This document shows positions 1 through 18,921 of a stretch of DNA of 64,000 nt, piece by piece. The DNA comes from a bacterium. Lineage in GTDB: Bacteria; JAAXHH01. The stretch is taken from contig OZ241838.1 in NCBI GenBank assembly GCA_965202605.1, positions 1,647,817 through 1,711,816 on the forward strand, read 5' to 3'. How positions within the stretch are numbered: the stretch's first letter is position 1; each line of letters opens with the position of its first letter. Below the pieces are notes generated by a model. The model was not told where the DNA came from and did no database searches. It saw nothing but the letters and a program-made list of their open reading frames with translations. Made by a program: the position numbers and the translations under genes.

Positions 1-619
1 GAAGTATGTTCTTGGGTTCAATGCAGTCGTAATCCCAACCATGAACCTCTCCAGGATCGGCCTTGACAACAAAGTCCGCTATCCATGCGCCGACACCACC
101 AAGTCCGACAATCGCCACACGCTCTTGAGCTACCAGACTCCTCCACTCCACTGCTTCTGGCAGTTGGTCACCAAGCACATCGAAAGTATAAGGGCGCGGA
201 GCCGATTCCCTACTCGTTGCGGATCGGCCAAGGAACAGCGCGTATATATGCTTGACGTAATTGTTTAATGCTTCCCAAGCATTCTCATATTCGCGGTCTT
301 TCAACTTGACCGACAGTACAAGACTGTAATGATTTCGCCCAATCACGCCGTTTGTCAACTCATTGCCAGAACCGTCGAACAATCTTCCGTCGGAGAGACC
401 TCGTATATTGGCCGCGTGTGAAGCGTTTTTCTGCCATTTGTGGTTTACTTCGAGTTCATCCGAGTTAGATGCGGTCCCTACCCAGATGTGACACTCGCCT
501 ACGACATTCGGTGCGAGAAAACATGGTACACCTAATGCACCTATTTCTATGTCTTGACGCTCGATTTTCCACCCGCGTCGCTCCGCTTCATGACGAGCAC
601 GTGACTCATGTTCTGACAC
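1..619 (-). CDS. ThiF/MoeB-family E1-like adenylyltransferase, partial (C-terminus runs off the left edge); the N-terminal ~150 aa carry a UBC/E2-like motif, so it may be an E2-E1 fusion (Cap2-like).
   Basis: Hand translation of the minus strand gives ...QERVAIVGLGGVGAWIADFVVKADPGEVHGWDYDCIEP, a Rossmann GxGxxG typical of ThiF/E1. About 140 aa upstream of that sits FLAPNVVGECHIWVG, resembling the UBC HPNV..G.IC(L) active-site signature. The most upstream in-frame start is GTG at 619, only 8 nt after the stop of the 97-aa ORF. It is absent from the ORF track because it is truncated by the window edge. Confidence 0.55.
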   Translation of the reverse strand, partial: MSEHESRARHEAERRGWKIERQDIEIGALGVPCFLAPNVVGECHIWVGTASNSDELEVNHKWQKNASHAANIRGLSDGRLFDGSGNELTNGVIGRNHYSLVLSVKLKDREYENAWEALNNYVKHIYALFLGRSATSRESAPRPYTFDVLGDQLPEAVEWRSLVAQERVAIVGLGGVGAWIADFVVKADPGEVHGWDYDCIEPKNIL

Positions 620-627
620 AGTTTTCC

Positions 628-921
628 CTAAGCGAGATACGAGTCGTCAATCTTGAACGACAGTTCATCACCCACAGCCAACGGTTTATCCGACGGATAG
701 AGAATCCCCTTTGTTCCGTCCTTAGCCTCCCAGTCGATGCCTGGAAGATTACCTGTCACACGTCTTTCCGGATCAAGTTTATTCCACTGTTCGACCACTT
801 GCGCGAAGCTGATGGTCGGCTTGTCCCACAGCACCGACCGAGCATTGATGTAAATGGTCAACTCCTTGACAATCCCCGTCGGTCCATTGGGTCCATCGCC
901 GTTTCCAGGTTCTTGTACCAA
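628..921 (-). CDS. Small hypothetical protein (97 aa), translationally coupled to the downstream E1-like gene; possibly a beta-grasp/ubiquitin-like or other partner of the E1.
   Basis: ORF with a TTG start preceded by AAGGAGG with a 9-nt spacer. Its stop lies 8 nt before the E1-like GTG. It has no C-terminal Gly-Gly; only a weak secondary-structure-like resemblance to ubiquitin-type folds. Confidence 0.45.
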   Translation of the reverse strand: MVQEPGNGDGPNGPTGIVKELTIYINARSVLWDKPTISFAQVVEQWNKLDPERRVTGNLPGIDWEAKDGTKGILYPSDKPLAVGDELSFKIDDSYLA

Positions 922-1450
922 TTTGGATTCCTCCTTGATGTCTAACTAAGTGTCTGTTTCGCTTTCCAGTGTACTGCACGTAGGGCAGAGAGCGACCCGG
1001 GTGACCAGTTATGTTGCTCAAGAAAGTTCGTCTTGCCCACCCAGAGCACGTCTCAACTCAATGAACCAACTGCCCCGCTTAGGTCAACACACTCCGTCCT
1101 GCGGGTGTCTGAACTAGATGGCCAACCTGTCGAATGGCGTACCTGATGATCCCGGCGCAAAAGGTCGTAATGCCCTTACCAGACACTTTTCGCTCCCGCA
1201 TCGCGCAATCAAGCAATGTAACACTTTGCGAGCAACTACGCAACTGTTTAGTACTGCAGCGGTACGTGGCATACGGTGTATCGCAGACGCGATCTGAGTA
1301 GAATCCAGCTCGCTGTGGTGTTATGGTCATGAGCACACCCGGGAAGCACAATCGCGACGAGATGTAGCCACGGCAAGTTAATTATTGACAAGACACCCAC
1401 AATCATACATATAATACTAAAAGGAATTATTTAAGTAAAAGTTATTTCTT

Positions 1451-1533: not shown

Positions 1534-1797
1534 ATGAGTAAAAATAACCAAACGTCTGATGAGTATCAAGATGAAAATGAACAACGCGAAGAATTAACTC
1601 GGAGGTTAAGGATGTATTTCTCAGACCAAAACTGGCTTCCAGTTTCAAGGTCGTGGTGGTGTATATTTATCTCGTACGATGCCGCCGACCGCGATATAGT
1701 GCTTGAGCTAGCTCGGAAATTCGATCTCCTGCCCAGACCAGACCGTGACACTCGCAACTTCGACTACGATTCATGGCAGGAAGGAGTGGAGGACTAA
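1534..1797 (+). CDS. Small acidic hypothetical ORF (87 aa) containing a TIR-like CIFISYDAADRDIVLELARKF segment; possibly a truncated remnant of a TIR-domain gene.
   Basis: GAGGTG-like RBS before the ATG. It lies in AT-rich DNA. The FISY..D motif resembles the first strand/helix of TIR domains, but the ORF ends about 25 aa later. Confidence 0.3.
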   Translation: MSKNNQTSDEYQDENEQREELTRRLRMYFSDQNWLPVSRSWWCIFISYDAADRDIVLELARKFDLLPRPDRDTRNFDYDSWQEGVED

Positions 1798-5809: not shown

Positions 5810-7594
5810 TTGGCCGGTGCCCCGGACTATAGCGACGATGTGTTTTTCGACGACGTCGACCTGGACGCCCACAGCGCCAGGACGGTAGATTCCGAAGCCA
5901 TCGAGTTCTTCCCCACCGACTACCGCATCGGCCGGACCAAGTACATCTTCGTCACCGGCGGCGTCATGTCCGGCGTGGGCAAGGGCGTCTTCAGCGCCTC
6001 CCTCGGACACCTGCTCAAGCATTACGGATTCACGGTTTCCCAGATCAAGATCGACGGCTACCTGAACCAGGACGCCGGCACCATCAACCCCTATCGCCAC
6101 GGGGAGGTGTTCGTGCTCGAGGACGGTACCGAGTGCGACATGGACCTGGGCACCTACGAACGTTTCCTCGACGACAATCTGAACCGGAACAACTACATCA
6201 CCTCGGGCAGGGTGTACCGGATCATCCTCGACAAGGAACGCCGCGGCGAGTACCTGGGACGCGACGTGCAGGTCGTGCCCCACGTGACCGGCGAGATCAA
6301 GAACCTGATCCGGACCAAGGCGCATGAAGGGCCTTACGACATCCTGGTCGTCGAAATCGGCGGCACCGTCGGGGATATCGAGAACATCCATTTCATCGAA
6401 GCCGCCCGCGAGATGCTCTACGACGAGGGACGGGACAATGTCATGTCGGCCCACGTCACGCAGGTACCCTATAACGAGTCCGCGGGGGAACTGAAGACCA
6501 AACCCACGCAGCACAGCGTCAAGGCACTCCTGCAACTGGGCATTCAGCCCGATATCGTGGTATGCCGTTCGGCCATACCGCTGAACAAGAGCGTCCGCCA
6601 GAAGATCAGCCTCTTCTGCAACATCGCGGAGGATCGCGTGGTCAGCAGCCCGGATACGGATTCCATCTACCGCGTGCCCACGCTGCTCGACCGCCAGCAG
6701 ACGGTTCAGATCGTCGCCGAGAAGCTCAACGTAAATCTCCCGCAGCGTACCGATCAGCGGCCCCAGATTTTCGACATCTACCTCAAATACCTGTCCAGAA
6801 GCCACCCGGAAGTCCGCATTGCCATCACGGGAAAGTATACGGCCCTGCACGATTCATACGTGAGTATCCTGAACGCCCTGGACCACAGCGAGGTCAGCGT
6901 GGGCGTGGATATCGCCACGGAGTGGATCGATACGACGGATATTTCGGCGGACGAGCCGCTGGACGCCGGAATTCTGGACGGCATATCCGGCATCATCGTG
7001 CCTGGCGGCTTCGGCGAGCGGGGCGCCGAGGGGAAGATCCGGTTCATACAGTATGCCAGAGAGAACGGTCTGCCGTTCCTTGGCTTGTGCTATGGGTTCC
7101 AGCTGGCCGTCGTGGAGTTCGCGCGAAACCAGTGCGGACTGCTGAACGCGGCCCATGCCGAGTTCGACGCGGAGGCCGAATCGCCGGTCATCTACCTGCT
7201 GCCCGGCCAGCGCAAACTGGCTGAAATGGGGGGCACGATGCGGCTGGGCGGACACGAGGTGAAGCTGAAAGACGGCACGGAAGCCCACCGCTGCTACGGA
7301 TCGGATTCGGCCATGGAACGATTCCGCCACCGGTACGAGTTCAACAACCAGTACAGGGAACTCATCGAGCACAAGGGCATGGTGTTCTCCGGCATGACAC
7401 CCGACGAGCAGATTATGCAGATCCTGGAAATCCCCACGCATCCCTTCTTCGTAGGAACCCAGTTCCACCCCGAGTTGACCAGCCGTCCATACAGGCCCCA
7501 CCCCTTGTTCAGGGGACTGGTACAGGCAGCGCTGGATTACGTGGAATCAGAGGAAAACCGGCAGATGGCCTTGCAGGCCGGACAGGTGGAATAA
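5810..7594 (+). CDS. pyrG: CTP synthase.
   Basis: KYIFVTGGVMSGVGKG P-loop region, the glutamine amidotransferase domain (GLCYGFQL) and full-length similarity. AAGGAG with a 7-nt spacer precedes the TTG start. It carries an unusual ~40-aa acidic N-terminal extension. Confidence 0.95.
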   Translation: MAGAPDYSDDVFFDDVDLDAHSARTVDSEAIEFFPTDYRIGRTKYIFVTGGVMSGVGKGVFSASLGHLLKHYGFTVSQIKIDGYLNQDAGTINPYRHGEVFVLEDGTECDMDLGTYERFLDDNLNRNNYITSGRVYRIILDKERRGEYLGRDVQVVPHVTGEIKNLIRTKAHEGPYDILVVEIGGTVGDIENIHFIEAAREMLYDEGRDNVMSAHVTQVPYNESAGELKTKPTQHSVKALLQLGIQPDIVVCRSAIPLNKSVRQKISLFCNIAEDRVVSSPDTDSIYRVPTLLDRQQTVQIVAEKLNVNLPQRTDQRPQIFDIYLKYLSRSHPEVRIAITGKYTALHDSYVSILNALDHSEVSVGVDIATEWIDTTDISADEPLDAGILDGISGIIVPGGFGERGAEGKIRFIQYARENGLPFLGLCYGFQLAVVEFARNQCGLLNAAHAEFDAEAESPVIYLLPGQRKLAEMGGTMRLGGHEVKLKDGTEAHRCYGSDSAMERFRHRYEFNNQYRELIEHKGMVFSGMTPDEQIMQILEIPTHPFFVGTQFHPELTSRPYRPHPLFRGLVQAALDYVESEENRQMALQAGQVE

Positions 7595-14433: not shown

Positions 14434-14617
14434 GCTTTTTAATTACTACCACCTAAACCCCTATTTCAGTAAATCTTGAGGTTTAGTACACTACGAATAC
14501 ATTGTAAAATTAGGTAGCCAGTATACTGAATCGGACAGTAAATGAGATGAGTTAAGAAACGGTTCTAGTTCATGATGACCCTAGTTAAGGGTAGGAGTTA
14601 AACAGGAGAATCCCAAC

Positions 14618-15028
14618 ATGAAGCATTACAATCTGTTCATTAGCCACTCTTGGTCGTACGGCGACTCATACAAGAACCTTGTCGGTCTACTCAATTCAAG
14701 ATCATACTTTACATTCAGCAACTATTCTGTACCTAGATATGATCCGGTGCATACTAGCGGCACCGATAGGGAGCTCTATAGTGCTATCAAGAACCAAATG
14801 AGCCCGTGCAGCGTAGTTCTGATTTTAGCGGGGATGTATGCCAGCTATAGTAAATGGATGGAAAAGGAAATCAACATCGCCAAAAAAGAGTTCTCTAGCG
14901 CTAAACCTATAGTTGCCATTGAACCTTGGGGAAGCGATCGGACTTCCACACTTGTGAAATTGAATGCAGACAGAATCGTCAAGTGGAATACAGACAGCAT
15001 TGTTGCCGCTATACGGGGAGTAGCATGA
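14618..15028 (+). CDS. TIR-like domain protein (DUF1863 / Thoeris ThsB-like), 136 aa.
   Basis: LFISHSWSYGDSY...SVVLILAGMYASYSKWMEKEINIAKKEFSSAKPIVAIEPWG matches the DUF1863 TIR-like pattern (an F-I/F-S-H/F strand, then the xxSxWVxxEIxxA helix). AGGAGA RBS. It sits in AT-rich DNA. Confidence 0.7.
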   Translation: MKHYNLFISHSWSYGDSYKNLVGLLNSRSYFTFSNYSVPRYDPVHTSGTDRELYSAIKNQMSPCSVVLILAGMYASYSKWMEKEINIAKKEFSSAKPIVAIEPWGSDRTSTLVKLNADRIVKWNTDSIVAAIRGVA

Positions 15029-15483
15029 CAATGGACGAAAAAAAAGAGCTGCTGGAAATCTATAAACTGCACGCGGGACTTGCCGACAGTGTTAGCAGAC
15101 AGAGAGGTACAACCAATCGTTCTTATTTGTTGCTAATGTCAGGACTATCCGTGCTCTTTTCTGCACTCCTGCAACTTCGAAATGGAGTACATATAGGCTT
15201 TCTCATGTTGGGGTTCGGGATTTTGGGATCATTGTTGTCTATAGCTTGGTACATTCACATTCGTTCCTACCGCCAGCTAAATTCAGGTAAATTTAAGCCA
15301 CTACACGAGTTAGAAGTCAAATTAGCCTACCCTTTTTTCAAACGAGAATGGGAACTCTTGGGTGAAGGAGAAAAGCGCAGTAAGTACTGGAAACTGACAG
15401 TTGTTGAGACATTCGTCCCTGCTGTTTTTTTCGTGCTTTTCACCACAGTGGCATTGATAGGAATCTATCTGCTCCTATGTTGA
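15025..15483 (+). CDS. Small membrane protein with three predicted TM helices (152 aa), translationally coupled to the TIR-like gene; a candidate membrane-disrupting effector (SLATT-like?).
   Basis: ATGA overlap with the upstream stop. Hydrophobic segments are YLLLMSGLSVLFSALLQL, IGFLMLGFGILGSLLSIAWYIHI and VPAVFFVLFTTVALIGIYLLL, plus a charged ~45-aa loop. The track ORF 14926..15483 is trimmed to the coupled ATG. Confidence 0.6.
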   Translation: MTMDEKKELLEIYKLHAGLADSVSRQRGTTNRSYLLLMSGLSVLFSALLQLRNGVHIGFLMLGFGILGSLLSIAWYIHIRSYRQLNSGKFKPLHELEVKLAYPFFKREWELLGEGEKRSKYWKLTVVETFVPAVFFVLFTTVALIGIYLLLC

Positions 15484-15738
15484 ACATCATCTTTAGAGGT
15501 ATGCTCGAAATCTTATAAAGCAATCGACGTGATCATAATTCGCACAGTGTGACATTGCGAAGTAGCCTGTTGATCGAAACACAAAAGCTCTCCAAGCTAA
15601 CAGTCAAAATAGAGGCGTTAGGGGGTATGCAAGGCTGCATACTGCTTGTCGACTATTTTGGACCATACTCCAAAAAAGTAGGATATTTTTGGAGGGATGT
15701 TCAAATCAGTAACATGTCGCTGGCCCTGAATGAGCAGG

Positions 15739-17005: not shown

Positions 17006-17602
17006 TTACCTTGATTGAGTATTTCTAAAAAACTCTTTAACCATTACGATCGCAGTTTCTGGTTTCTTAACAACTCTAAGATTTGCAGCAAAAGGTCGCC
17101 CAGGATGGAGTGTGTCCCACCAACTTTTCTCTCCTTGCTGCCTGCCTTTTCCAGGATCGTGAATACCAAAACCTTCAATGCAGCGATTCCAAACTGGCAT
17201 ATAGTGATCTATTAAGAACCTCTCTGCCAACGTAATCCATACTGGCTCAACAGCGAGATATCTGAAAGTGAAATGAGACGCTTCGAGGTCATTAGTCTGG
17301 TTTATGGATTTCATATGTTCGCGTATGCGGCTACGCAAACTGGGATTGAATATGTCAATTTTATCGCCCTTCCTTGAACCTGGAGGTACGGCTTTTCCAA
17401 CATATATTGGTCTGTTGCTCGAATCCTTGATAGGTTTGTAGATTGTTAACTCGCCTGTATAGTATAAAGAATATATACCTGGTCCATTTATGTTACGAAT
17501 GGAGTCTTCATTAAGTGGTAGGGTTCCTTGTTTTTCATAACTTACCACCAAGCCCATCATGAGATTCTCATATGTCAAAGGATCATACAATTCAATGTTC
17601 AT
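17006..17602 (-). CDS. GIY-YIG restriction endonuclease, Eco29kI-like.
   Basis: GIYSLYYTGE...PIYVGKAVPPGSRKG is a GIY-YIG motif typical of the Eco29kI family. A 4-nt ATGA overlap couples it to the upstream methyltransferase. AT-rich DNA. Confidence 0.65.
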   Translation of the reverse strand: MNIELYDPLTYENLMMGLVVSYEKQGTLPLNEDSIRNINGPGIYSLYYTGELTIYKPIKDSSNRPIYVGKAVPPGSRKGDKIDIFNPSLRSRIREHMKSINQTNDLEASHFTFRYLAVEPVWITLAERFLIDHYMPVWNRCIEGFGIHDPGKGRQQGEKSWWDTLHPGRPFAANLRVVKKPETAIVMVKEFFRNTQSR

Positions 17603-18921
17603 GGTTTACGTAACTCCACAATGGACTCATACAACCGCGATCCTTTAGTCGTTTTGCCGGCTCGAACTGAGGAATCGACAATACTGCTTCCGACCCTAGA
17701 TTTACGAGGAGTATGTATTTCAACTGTATCCATGCCCCTGGATTCTGCTATTTTAGATAAGAACCTGTCAGTAGGAATTGTAACTCCCTGCAATATGCTG
17801 TTTCCAATTACAACTAGTGCAGTTGTTCCTCGGCGCAGGCACCAGTTCGCACCGTCGATAAATCTAACGCAGTCGTTGAAATACCTTGTAGCATAATTCG
17901 CCCAGCCCGCACCTCCATATACACCTTTATCAGGATTCATGTTTCTCACCTCTTCAATTGTTTCTTTGATATCCGCATCCTGAATCGTCGAATCGAGTTC
18001 GATTTGTGATCGATCTCTAGCATTCTGCCAATAAGAACCAAAGTTCAAGTGCTCAAGTTTTTTTAGATCCCCAGGACTATGACATAGTTCCAGCCAGTAG
18101 AGATGCGGCCTAGTATTACGATTGTAGTGATAGTTATTGAGATACGGTGGTGAAGTGATGAGAAGATCTATACTCTCCGGTTCAATTTGTTTAAACTCTT
18201 CAAAGAACGAGCTATTAATGACAGTGCCGTCACTCCTATTTGAGCGATTGCGAGACTTACTATACCAATGGGAATCCTCGGCTATTTGCGAGATCTTCCG
18301 AGCTATAGTTTCCAAAACTGGAAAATCACAAACATCTGGACGGCCCGCTGCTCTTTTTCGTCCCAAGCTAGGCTCGTAGGAGTAATTTGAATAGTCGACC
18401 ATCGTAGCAGCGAAAGCGACTCTAAAAAAATCAAAAAACTCTGTGTATTTTTGTTGCTTGATAAAATCCTGGTACAGCAAAACCTTTCGTAGGACATTCG
18501 GGCTAAAAAAAGGTACTCTTGTACGAAATCCTTTTGGAGCCGAAGCCTTGGGCTGCCAATTGCCGGATTCAGCATCTTTGGAGTATTCCTTGAAATCGGA
18601 GATTGCGCCTTGCAGTTTTTGTTGGTTAGTGTGATGCGACTCAAGTTTGGTTCTACAAACCATTGCAGCATATGGATTTATTTCAAACCCTATGGAGTCG
18701 TGTCCAGATATATCAGCCTCGACAAGGGTCGTCCCGACACCAGCAAACGGGTCTAATACTTTGCCAAAATCTGGTAGGTGTCTTCTAATTGCATCTTCAA
18801 CAAATTGGTACGAATAGCCTGCAATCCATGGTACCCAGCGATGTATAGGTGCATCCCTATTCGCCATGAATGCAGGATCGCTGAAACCCGTACTGTTTTT
18901 CTTTAAAGGTGTTTTTCCCAT
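17599..18921 (-). CDS. DNA methyltransferase, amino type (N6-adenine or N4-cytosine; SPPY motif IV with N-terminal FAGVGTT motif I), cognate to the GIY-YIG endonuclease.
   Basis: LDPFAGVGTTLVEA (motif I) near the N-terminus and LLITSPPY (motif IV) near residue 250. Operonic with the endonuclease. Confidence 0.75.
   Translation of the reverse strand: MGKTPLKKNSTGFSDPAFMANRDAPIHRWVPWIAGYSYQFVEDAIRRHLPDFGKVLDPFAGVGTTLVEADISGHDSIGFEINPYAAMVCRTKLESHHTNQQKLQGAISDFKEYSKDAESGNWQPKASAPKGFRTRVPFFSPNVLRKVLLYQDFIKQQKYTEFFDFFRVAFAATMVDYSNYSYEPSLGRKRAAGRPDVCDFPVLETIARKISQIAEDSHWYSKSRNRSNRSDGTVINSSFFEEFKQIEPESIDLLITSPPYLNNYHYNRNTRPHLYWLELCHSPGDLKKLEHLNFGSYWQNARDRSQIELDSTIQDADIKETIEEVRNMNPDKGVYGGAGWANYATRYFNDCVRFIDGANWCLRRGTTALVVIGNSILQGVTIPTDRFLSKIAESRGMDTVEIHTPRKSRVGSSIVDSSVRAGKTTKGSRLYESIVELRKP

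Follow-up and report, generated by a model that had tools for sequence, protein, structure and literature searches.

The stretch of bacterial DNA analysed here, 64,000 nucleotides long and hereafter called the window (assembly GCA_965202605.1, contig OZ241838.1, positions 1,647,817 to 1,711,816), carries at positions 14434-15738 a 1.3 kb islet with two genes on the + strand: a thsB-like TIR gene (gene 1, 14618..15028) and a gene for a small membrane protein, the predicted effector (gene 2, 15025..15483). We think it probable that the two genes of this cassette make up a Thoeris-type module for anti-phage signalling, of the "TIR + 3TM (8xMP)" class, acquired horizontally from a donor of lower GC content. 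The original prediction had singled out an AT-rich segment of about 1.3 kb between a PhyH gene and hisI, and this was confirmed: the GC content of the islet is 0.425, compared to a window mean of 0.611, and its flanks are matched in Pfam as a PhyH dioxygenase gene (E=1.1e-11) and as hisI/PRA-CH (E=1.3e-23). The background of about 65% GC given at the time was too high, as the computed window mean is about 61%. Among segments of the same size as the islet, the standard deviation of GC is 0.047, and just 2.2% of them have a GC of 0.45 or less. The two genes are present as described, the stop codon of gene 1 and the start codon of gene 2 overlapping in an ATGA at 15025-15028. The public record of the gene 2 protein (P0001) has 150 amino acids, which would place the start of gene 2 at the ATG at 15031 and leave 2 nt between it and the TIR stop; with either start, the coupling of the two genes is tight.

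Gene 1 codes for a bare, stand-alone TIR of 136 amino acids, without ligand-binding or sensor domain, as in ThsB proteins. It matches PF08937 (ThsB_TIR, Pfam) with E=5.5e-15 and 56 bits, for a cut-off of 21.2, as well as several PADLOC ThsB models, the best one at 4.9e-9, so that the initial description of a TIR-like, DUF1863/ThsB protein stands. When 239 homologues were aligned, the predicted catalytic Glu84, within the motif W80-x3-E84-I85, proved 100% conserved, and of the 39 columns with at least 90% conservation gene 1 retains 37. Type IV Thoeris defence was lost when the Glu equivalent to E84 was mutated in PsTIR (E79Q; 10.1101/2024.10.24.620036). The type IV ThsB of E. coli 328 (EcTIR) shares 62.3% identity with gene 1 over 130 amino acids, and infected cells expressing EcTIR yielded purified N7-cADPR (an isomer of cyclic ADP-ribose, cADPR), the signal of type IV Thoeris (10.1101/2024.10.24.620036). 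Identity to the ThsB of the Pseudohongiella type VII system and to two type VIII ThsBs is 38-40% (40% for Pseudohongiella), and the validated type VII and type VIII TIRs all made canonical cADPR (10.64898/2025.12.03.692087). Because these are the products of its characterised relatives, N7-cADPR or canonical cADPR would be the likeliest signal made by gene 1. Gene 1 also matches over its full length phrog_6988, a PHROG family of unknown function (E=1.7e-40), which means that phage or prophage genomes encode close homologues of its TIR.

Gene 2 codes for a protein of 152 amino acids (150 from the second ATG) that matches PF24838 ("8xMP") with E=2.4e-30 and 105.6 bits, for a cut-off of 30, over positions 1-133 of the 136 of the profile. 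This is the sole Pfam family matched. At E≤1, no Pfam match was found to SIR2, SLOG, Macro, SLATT, DUF4231 or DUF2270 (PF10028), so that the absence of SIR2, Macro and SLOG noted at the outset holds, and the Pfam search gave no match to caspase, DUF6650, CMP-hydrolase, HIT or the cyclic nucleotide-binding domain (CNBD) either. Searches of NCBIfam and PHROG were also negative. Gene 2 belongs to none of the validated Thoeris effector families (ThsA, C, D, E, F, G, H, I, J, K, L). Its own family is large, with 1,885 clusters at 50% identity (E≤1e-3), nearly all of them stand-alone proteins of 145-170 amino acids. A literature search with "8xMP" and "octameric membrane protein" found nothing relevant.

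The three transmembrane (TM) helices and the charged loop first ascribed to gene 2 were recovered, as hydrophobic segments at residues 33-50, 57-78 and 129-150, the last two separated by a 50-residue loop with 11 K/R and 7 D/E. The positive-inside rule predicts a cytoplasmic location for the N-terminus, which has 6 K/R, and for the loop at 79-128, with its 11 K/R. A monomer was modelled with AlphaFold2 from a diverse 104-sequence alignment, with a predicted local distance difference test (pLDDT) of 95.4; a model built from a shallow alignment (67-85% identity) had a pLDDT of 69 and was discarded in favour of the former. In the retained model, helix 3-50 comprises an N-terminal cytoplasmic helix that continues as TM1, helix 57-97 comprises TM2 continuing as a cytoplasmic helix, and a short helix at 104-111 precedes helix 124-151, which contains TM3. 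Gene 2 keeps every invariant or near-invariant residue of the family, namely Y13, R27, N31, G68, W75, Y82, L85, K89, E97, L100, E108, Y121, E128 and P132, and those at positions 13, 27, 31, 75, 82, 89, 97, 108, 121 and 128 are mostly in or beside the two cytoplasmic segments. No solved structure resembling gene 2 was found in the PDB set compared, which did not contain EcPucTM. One family member, P0247 (859 amino acids), has an 8xMP domain at 3-145 seemingly fused to a long C-terminal region, where Walker A/B motifs of an ABC/SMC-type ATPase were spotted by eye; this could be a true fusion or a gene-calling artefact.

The suggestion that the membrane partner was SLATT-like did not survive. The identity of gene 2 with ThsH, the SLATT effector of type VII Thoeris, was rejected, as hhalign gave a probability of 0.3% when the 8xMP alignment was compared with the ThsH proteins. 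Among 104 8xMP family members, SLATT_5 was marginally matched by 2 (E≈0.03), SLATT models associated with reverse transcriptases by 4 at most (E≥0.004), and a PADLOC PycTM model by a single one, marginally (E=0.001), gene 2 itself giving no match. A Pycsar or Pucsar TM effector was likewise rejected, since gene 2 has neither a PycTM match nor a CNBD and the islet contains no cyclase, and so was ThsC, the Macro-TM effector of type II Thoeris, since there is no Macro match. Judging from these profile comparisons, the putative effector encoded by gene 2 is of a curated Pfam family of its own, PF24838, without detectable kinship to SLATT. We also recorded a weak match of gene 1 to PDC-M50B, a protein of a PADLOC candidate system (E=1.9e-4), and a marginal one of a distant 8xMP member to PDC-M50A (E=0.008); the candidate system M50 may be a related pair of a TIR and a membrane protein.

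Conservation of the pair was assessed on 67 species-level loci encoding an 8xMP protein 48-83% identical to gene 2. Nearly all are metagenome-assembled genomes, from Poribacteria, Latescibacterota, Bryobacterales, Vicinamibacterales, Caldilineaceae and others, lineages which we take to be typical sponge symbionts. An intact TIR gene lies immediately upstream, on the same strand, at 26 loci, a truncated or frameshifted one at 8, and a C-terminal remnant only at 4; none is present at 27, and 2 loci were not assessable. A TIR is therefore found directly upstream of 8xMP in 34 of the 65 assessable loci, not counting the four with remnants. Overlapping stop and start codons (ATGA or TAATG) recur at the paired loci. 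The TIR to 8xMP order is shared by Poribacteria, Latescibacterota, Acidobacteriota, Alpha-, Beta- and Gammaproteobacteria, Cyanobacteria and a haloarchaeon, and the two genes still occur together where effector identity falls to 30-35%, on plasmids from Haematospirillum, Polaromonas and Synechococcus elongatus and on a megaplasmid of Halorubrum lacusprofundi. In IMG/VR, one contig (L080) out of 2.9 million carries the pair. The co-conservation that the original prediction called for is thus seen in the common gene order across phyla, on plasmids and in the haloarchaeon; it fails at the loci where 8xMP stands alone.

Other genes of interest accompany the pair at three of the related loci. In Anaerobium acetethylicum (L074, 3671-6408, FMKA01000014.1), a Peptidase_C14 (caspase-like) gene, a TIR gene, 8xMP and a second TIR gene follow one another downstream of a MobA/MobL relaxase gene, and in L049 a caspase-like open reading frame is found near the TIR/8xMP pair. 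Two different Thoeris-type effectors are gathered in one TIR cluster in L074, and may hence share a signal; the co-occurrence of caspase and 8xMP in these two loci is a weak hint towards N7-cADPR. In pHLAC01 of H. lacusprofundi (L078, 35-3558), a gene with an adenylate/guanylate cyclase domain, two TIR genes and an 8xMP-like gene lie within 3.5 kb, in what may be a mixed cyclase/TIR signalling island.

Taken together, these data support, at the level of sequence, a Thoeris-like reading of the pair. The ThsB-like TIR would sense phage infection and convert NAD+ to a cADPR isomer. This nucleotide would then bind the basic, conserved cytoplasmic face of 8xMP, which the N-terminal helix and the 79-128 loop make up; the binding sites would probably be the protomer interfaces of a ring-shaped homo-oligomer. 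The three-TM assembly would finally open or rearrange, so that the inner membrane would be breached or depolarised and phage replication aborted. The strongest argument for placing the TIR upstream, as the signal producer, is an evolutionary one: the partners of the TIR clade of gene 1 include caspase, CMP-hydrolase/TPR, SLATT and 8xMP proteins, so that one TIR clade is paired with swappable effectors. The same effector swapping around a constant TIR speaks against the reverse arrangement, in which the membrane protein would be a sensor or anchor that switches on the TIR, the latter killing as an NADase effector, as it does in CBASS, Pycsar and TIR-pAgo systems. Many bacterial TIRs are indeed NAD+-depleting effectors (10.64898/2025.12.03.692087, exclusion criteria), and a membrane protein could sense the envelope perturbation caused by phage entry. 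Yet gene 1 is devoid of any ligand-binding or sensor domain, like the ThsB proteins, and its close relatives are demonstrated signal producers with a caspase, CMP-hydrolase or SLATT partner. We therefore consider this exchange of roles very unlikely.

Several points weigh against the signalling module that we favour. The identity of its signal is a guess, made from relatives that are 38-62% identical to gene 1 and produce two different isomers. Gene 2 matched no PADLOC model, and the 104 8xMP family members gave only sporadic marginal matches to this collection. The octameric state is taken from the name of the Pfam family alone ("octameric membrane protein family"), our model being that of a monomer. 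Finally, the 10 configurations cloned by Yirmiya et al. exclude the "3TM" one, and this class rests on prediction (10.64898/2025.12.03.692087).

The solo copies of 8xMP are a further difficulty. The 27 close homologues without an adjacent TIR, about 40% of the 65, come mostly from Poribacteria. In some 12-15 Poribacteria species, 8xMP directly follows a copA-type (HMA/E1-E2) P-type ATPase gene, leaving no room for a TIR (for instance L008, L010-L016, L021, L022, L025 and L028, with 8xMP at ~6001-6450). Other solo copies adjoin HsdM, MmeI-like, SNF2/NOV_C or housekeeping SDR genes (the latter in L038 and L039), and one is on a Streptomyces plasmid. The median ratio of non-synonymous to synonymous substitution rates (dN/dS) is 0.074 for the copA-linked solo copies (66 pairs), indistinguishable from the 0.072 of paired Poribacteria copies. 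Solo copies are thus functional genes under strong purifying selection, and since their dN/dS is ≈0.07, the effector does not strictly need a TIR in cis, which weakens a strict two-gene view.

These copies are what one would expect if 8xMP had a TIR-independent and possibly non-defence membrane role, as a small channel or a stress protein, TIR adjacency being dispensable. In L003, L004, L020, L030, L032 and L021, however, remnants of the TIR 3′ end, or nucleotide homology to it, are found just upstream of position 6001, ahead of an otherwise solo 8xMP; these loci therefore descend from paired ancestors by deletion, and the remnants show that the TIR partner was deleted repeatedly or in an ancestor. 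Moreover, the copA-linked set is syntenic and probably results from one loss event, pairing is kept down to 30-35% identity and in Archaea, and TIRs at other loci could activate orphan effectors in trans. For these reasons, we judge a TIR-independent role unlikely as the explanation of the cassette. The solo copies themselves may be orphan Thoeris-type effectors on which TIRs act in trans, or co-opted membrane proteins with another role; those of sponge symbionts raise the question of whether Thoeris effectors are served in trans. A bolder idea, which we put forward tentatively and hold to be somewhat doubtful, is that 8xMP is a new ring-forming family of membrane effectors, gated by a cADPR isomer and non-homologous to SLATT, which in sponge symbionts such as Poribacteria would persist as an orphan "listener", driven in trans by TIRs from other loci, or co-opted beside copA for another membrane function. 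In that case, Thoeris effectors could be retained, and passed between genomes, separately from the enzymes that make their signals.

The third difficulty concerns expression. The leader of the cassette (14434..14617, + strand) is non-coding, with 37% GC, and presumably contains the promoter region; it holds the ribosome-binding site of gene 1, an AGGAG at 14604-14608, 9 nt 5′ of the ATG. No promoter consensus was detected upstream of gene 1, in a scan limited to sigma-70 sites, and no terminator consensus flanks the cassette. Together with its foreign composition (the GC content at third codon positions, GC3, is 0.50 for gene 1 and 0.44 for gene 2, compared to 0.72-0.81 for the neighbouring genes) and with the frameshifted or truncated copies of several relatives (L047-49, L054, L063 and L064), this could mean that the cassette is a recently acquired passenger, unexpressed or decaying, with no current function. 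Against this, both open reading frames are full-length and keep essentially all the conserved family residues, including the catalytic Glu, and both genes have Shine-Dalgarno motifs, that of gene 2 being a candidate GGGGAG at 15015-20, which leaves 4 nt to the first ATG and 10 nt to the second; the promoter scan, besides, covered the sigma-70 consensus only. A mere passenger is, in our opinion, quite unlikely.

Returning to a module acquired by horizontal transfer, the GC content of the two genes (0.43-0.44) is like that of the Poribacteria copies (0.42-0.47) and unlike that of the host, so that the composition of the islet fits horizontal transfer from a donor of lower GC. At the nucleotide level, the window and the related loci are homologous only over 14599-15445, that is, the two open reading frames and the ribosome-binding site, and the exchanged unit would therefore be the gene pair itself. 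Around the islet, we found no tRNA, no meaningful flanking repeat, and no integrase or transposase among the flanking open reading frames. The non-coding tail (15484..15738, 255 nt, 43% GC, not assigned to a strand), which extends to the 3′ end of hisI, has no nucleotide homology to the related loci; within it, positions 15652-15710 form an imperfect inverted repeat. A search of the islet, tail included, against Rfam gave no match.

Two other low-GC segments are present in the window. The first one, at 17006-18921 on the - strand, 1.5 kb from the TIR/8xMP islet (GC 0.40-0.44, GC3 0.37-0.39), carries two overlapping genes, one for a restriction endonuclease of the Eco29kI family (PF09517, E=2.9e-51) and one for a type II N6/N4 DNA methyltransferase; between the two islets lie hisI and a second PhyH gene, both with host-like GC. 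The genes adjoining related loci include HsdM, type I R, MmeI-like, PIN, HicAB and RelE. This genomic setting, with a restriction endonuclease and methyltransferase islet at 1.5 kb and the defence or toxin neighbours of relatives, fits a defence function. The other segment, at 1-2200 (GC 0.47-0.51), contains small open reading frames at 469-945 (+), 1079-1351 (-) and 1534-1797 (+), for which no Pfam or PADLOC match was found, and may be another acquired islet.

The pair had been thought not to be a characterised Thoeris architecture. Uncharacterised it is, but it has already been described as a putative one. Yirmiya et al. (bioRxiv, 3 Dec 2025, 10.64898/2025.12.03.692087) report 29 putative Thoeris types, of which seven new ones were validated (types V-XI), and their Table S1 and Fig. 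1C list TIRs with a putative effector class "3TM". In Table S1, the label occurs at least 100 times, mostly in TIR cluster 2734565194, to which validated TIRs of type VII (SLATT) and type VIII (CMP-hydrolase) systems also belong. The DefenseFinder run of that preprint covered the eleven validated Thoeris types only, and genomes with multiple ThsB and effector genes are reported (10.64898/2025.12.03.692087). One "3TM" entry was compared directly: the TIR IMG 2676542066 is 100% identical to P0391 of A. acetethylicum, whose immediate neighbour in L074 is a 149-amino-acid PF24838 protein, 35% identical to gene 2. From this comparison, the "3TM" class appears to be PF24838. Gene 1 is 61.5% identical to IMG 2676542066, and 58% to both 2595430680 and 2739065472, the range for the "3TM" TIRs listed being 45-62%. 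By these identities, the pair in the window is one more example of the catalogued, predicted "TIR+3TM" class, with the same TIR clade, the same effector family, two-gene operons and nothing essential that is different. The gene order is TIR then 8xMP here and at most loci, and 8xMP then TIR in Anaerobium, within the caspase-TIR-8xMP-TIR cluster. Since this putative Thoeris type is in the catalogue already, a single instance adds little; the 8xMP effector class is nevertheless large, with its 1,885 clusters, and goes undetected by PADLOC, and a protein of about 150 amino acids would be a compact model for the gating of a membrane assembly by a cADPR isomer.

Among validated systems, type VII Thoeris (ThsB with ThsH, SLATT/DUF4231; canonical cADPR) resembles the cassette in having a small ThsB TIR followed by an overlapping membrane-effector gene. 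Its Pseudohongiella TIR belongs to the same cluster as the class of gene 1, and the logic presumably shared would be a nucleotide-gated membrane breach. The effectors differ: the ThsH proteins, found next to relatives of the Pseudohongiella type VII TIR, have ~294-305 amino acids and match DUF4231, SLATT_3 and SLATT_1, while gene 2 has 152 amino acids and matches PF24838 only. AlphaFold 3 predicts ThsH as a filament-like assembly (10.64898/2025.12.03.692087). Type IV Thoeris (ThsB with the caspase-like ThsE; N7-cADPR) provides the closest characterised TIR, EcTIR, and its effector type shares a TIR cluster with 8xMP in Anaerobium; ThsE is, however, a soluble Arg-specific protease, and gene 2 a membrane protein.

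In type V Thoeris (ThsB with ThsF, DUF2270/PF10028; 3′cADPR), the effector also has three TM helices, and AlphaFold 3 predicts for it a homo-oligomeric ring that makes a channel, with basic pockets between the protomers (10.64898/2025.12.03.692087). Gene 2 differs by the lack of any PF10028 match, and type V TIRs come from other clusters; at two loci inspected on plasmids with type V TIRs, neither had a DUF2270 neighbour. The TM effectors of Pycsar and Pucsar (PycTM/PucTM, "pJV1-spdB3-like 3TM") are likewise 3-TM proteins gated by a nucleotide second messenger (cCMP, cUMP or cGMP). EcPucTM, solved by cryo-EM, is a 3-TM hexameric cylinder in which TM2 lines a ~15 Å channel, and has an abortive-infection phenotype. 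There, the signal generator is a cyclase, and PucTM has a CNBD with a β-sheet appendage. By analogy, the predicted topology of gene 2, with its N-terminus inside and its K/R-rich cytoplasmic loop, parallels both the basic pockets that AlphaFold 3 predicts between protomers of ThsF and ThsH and the arrangement of EcPucTM.

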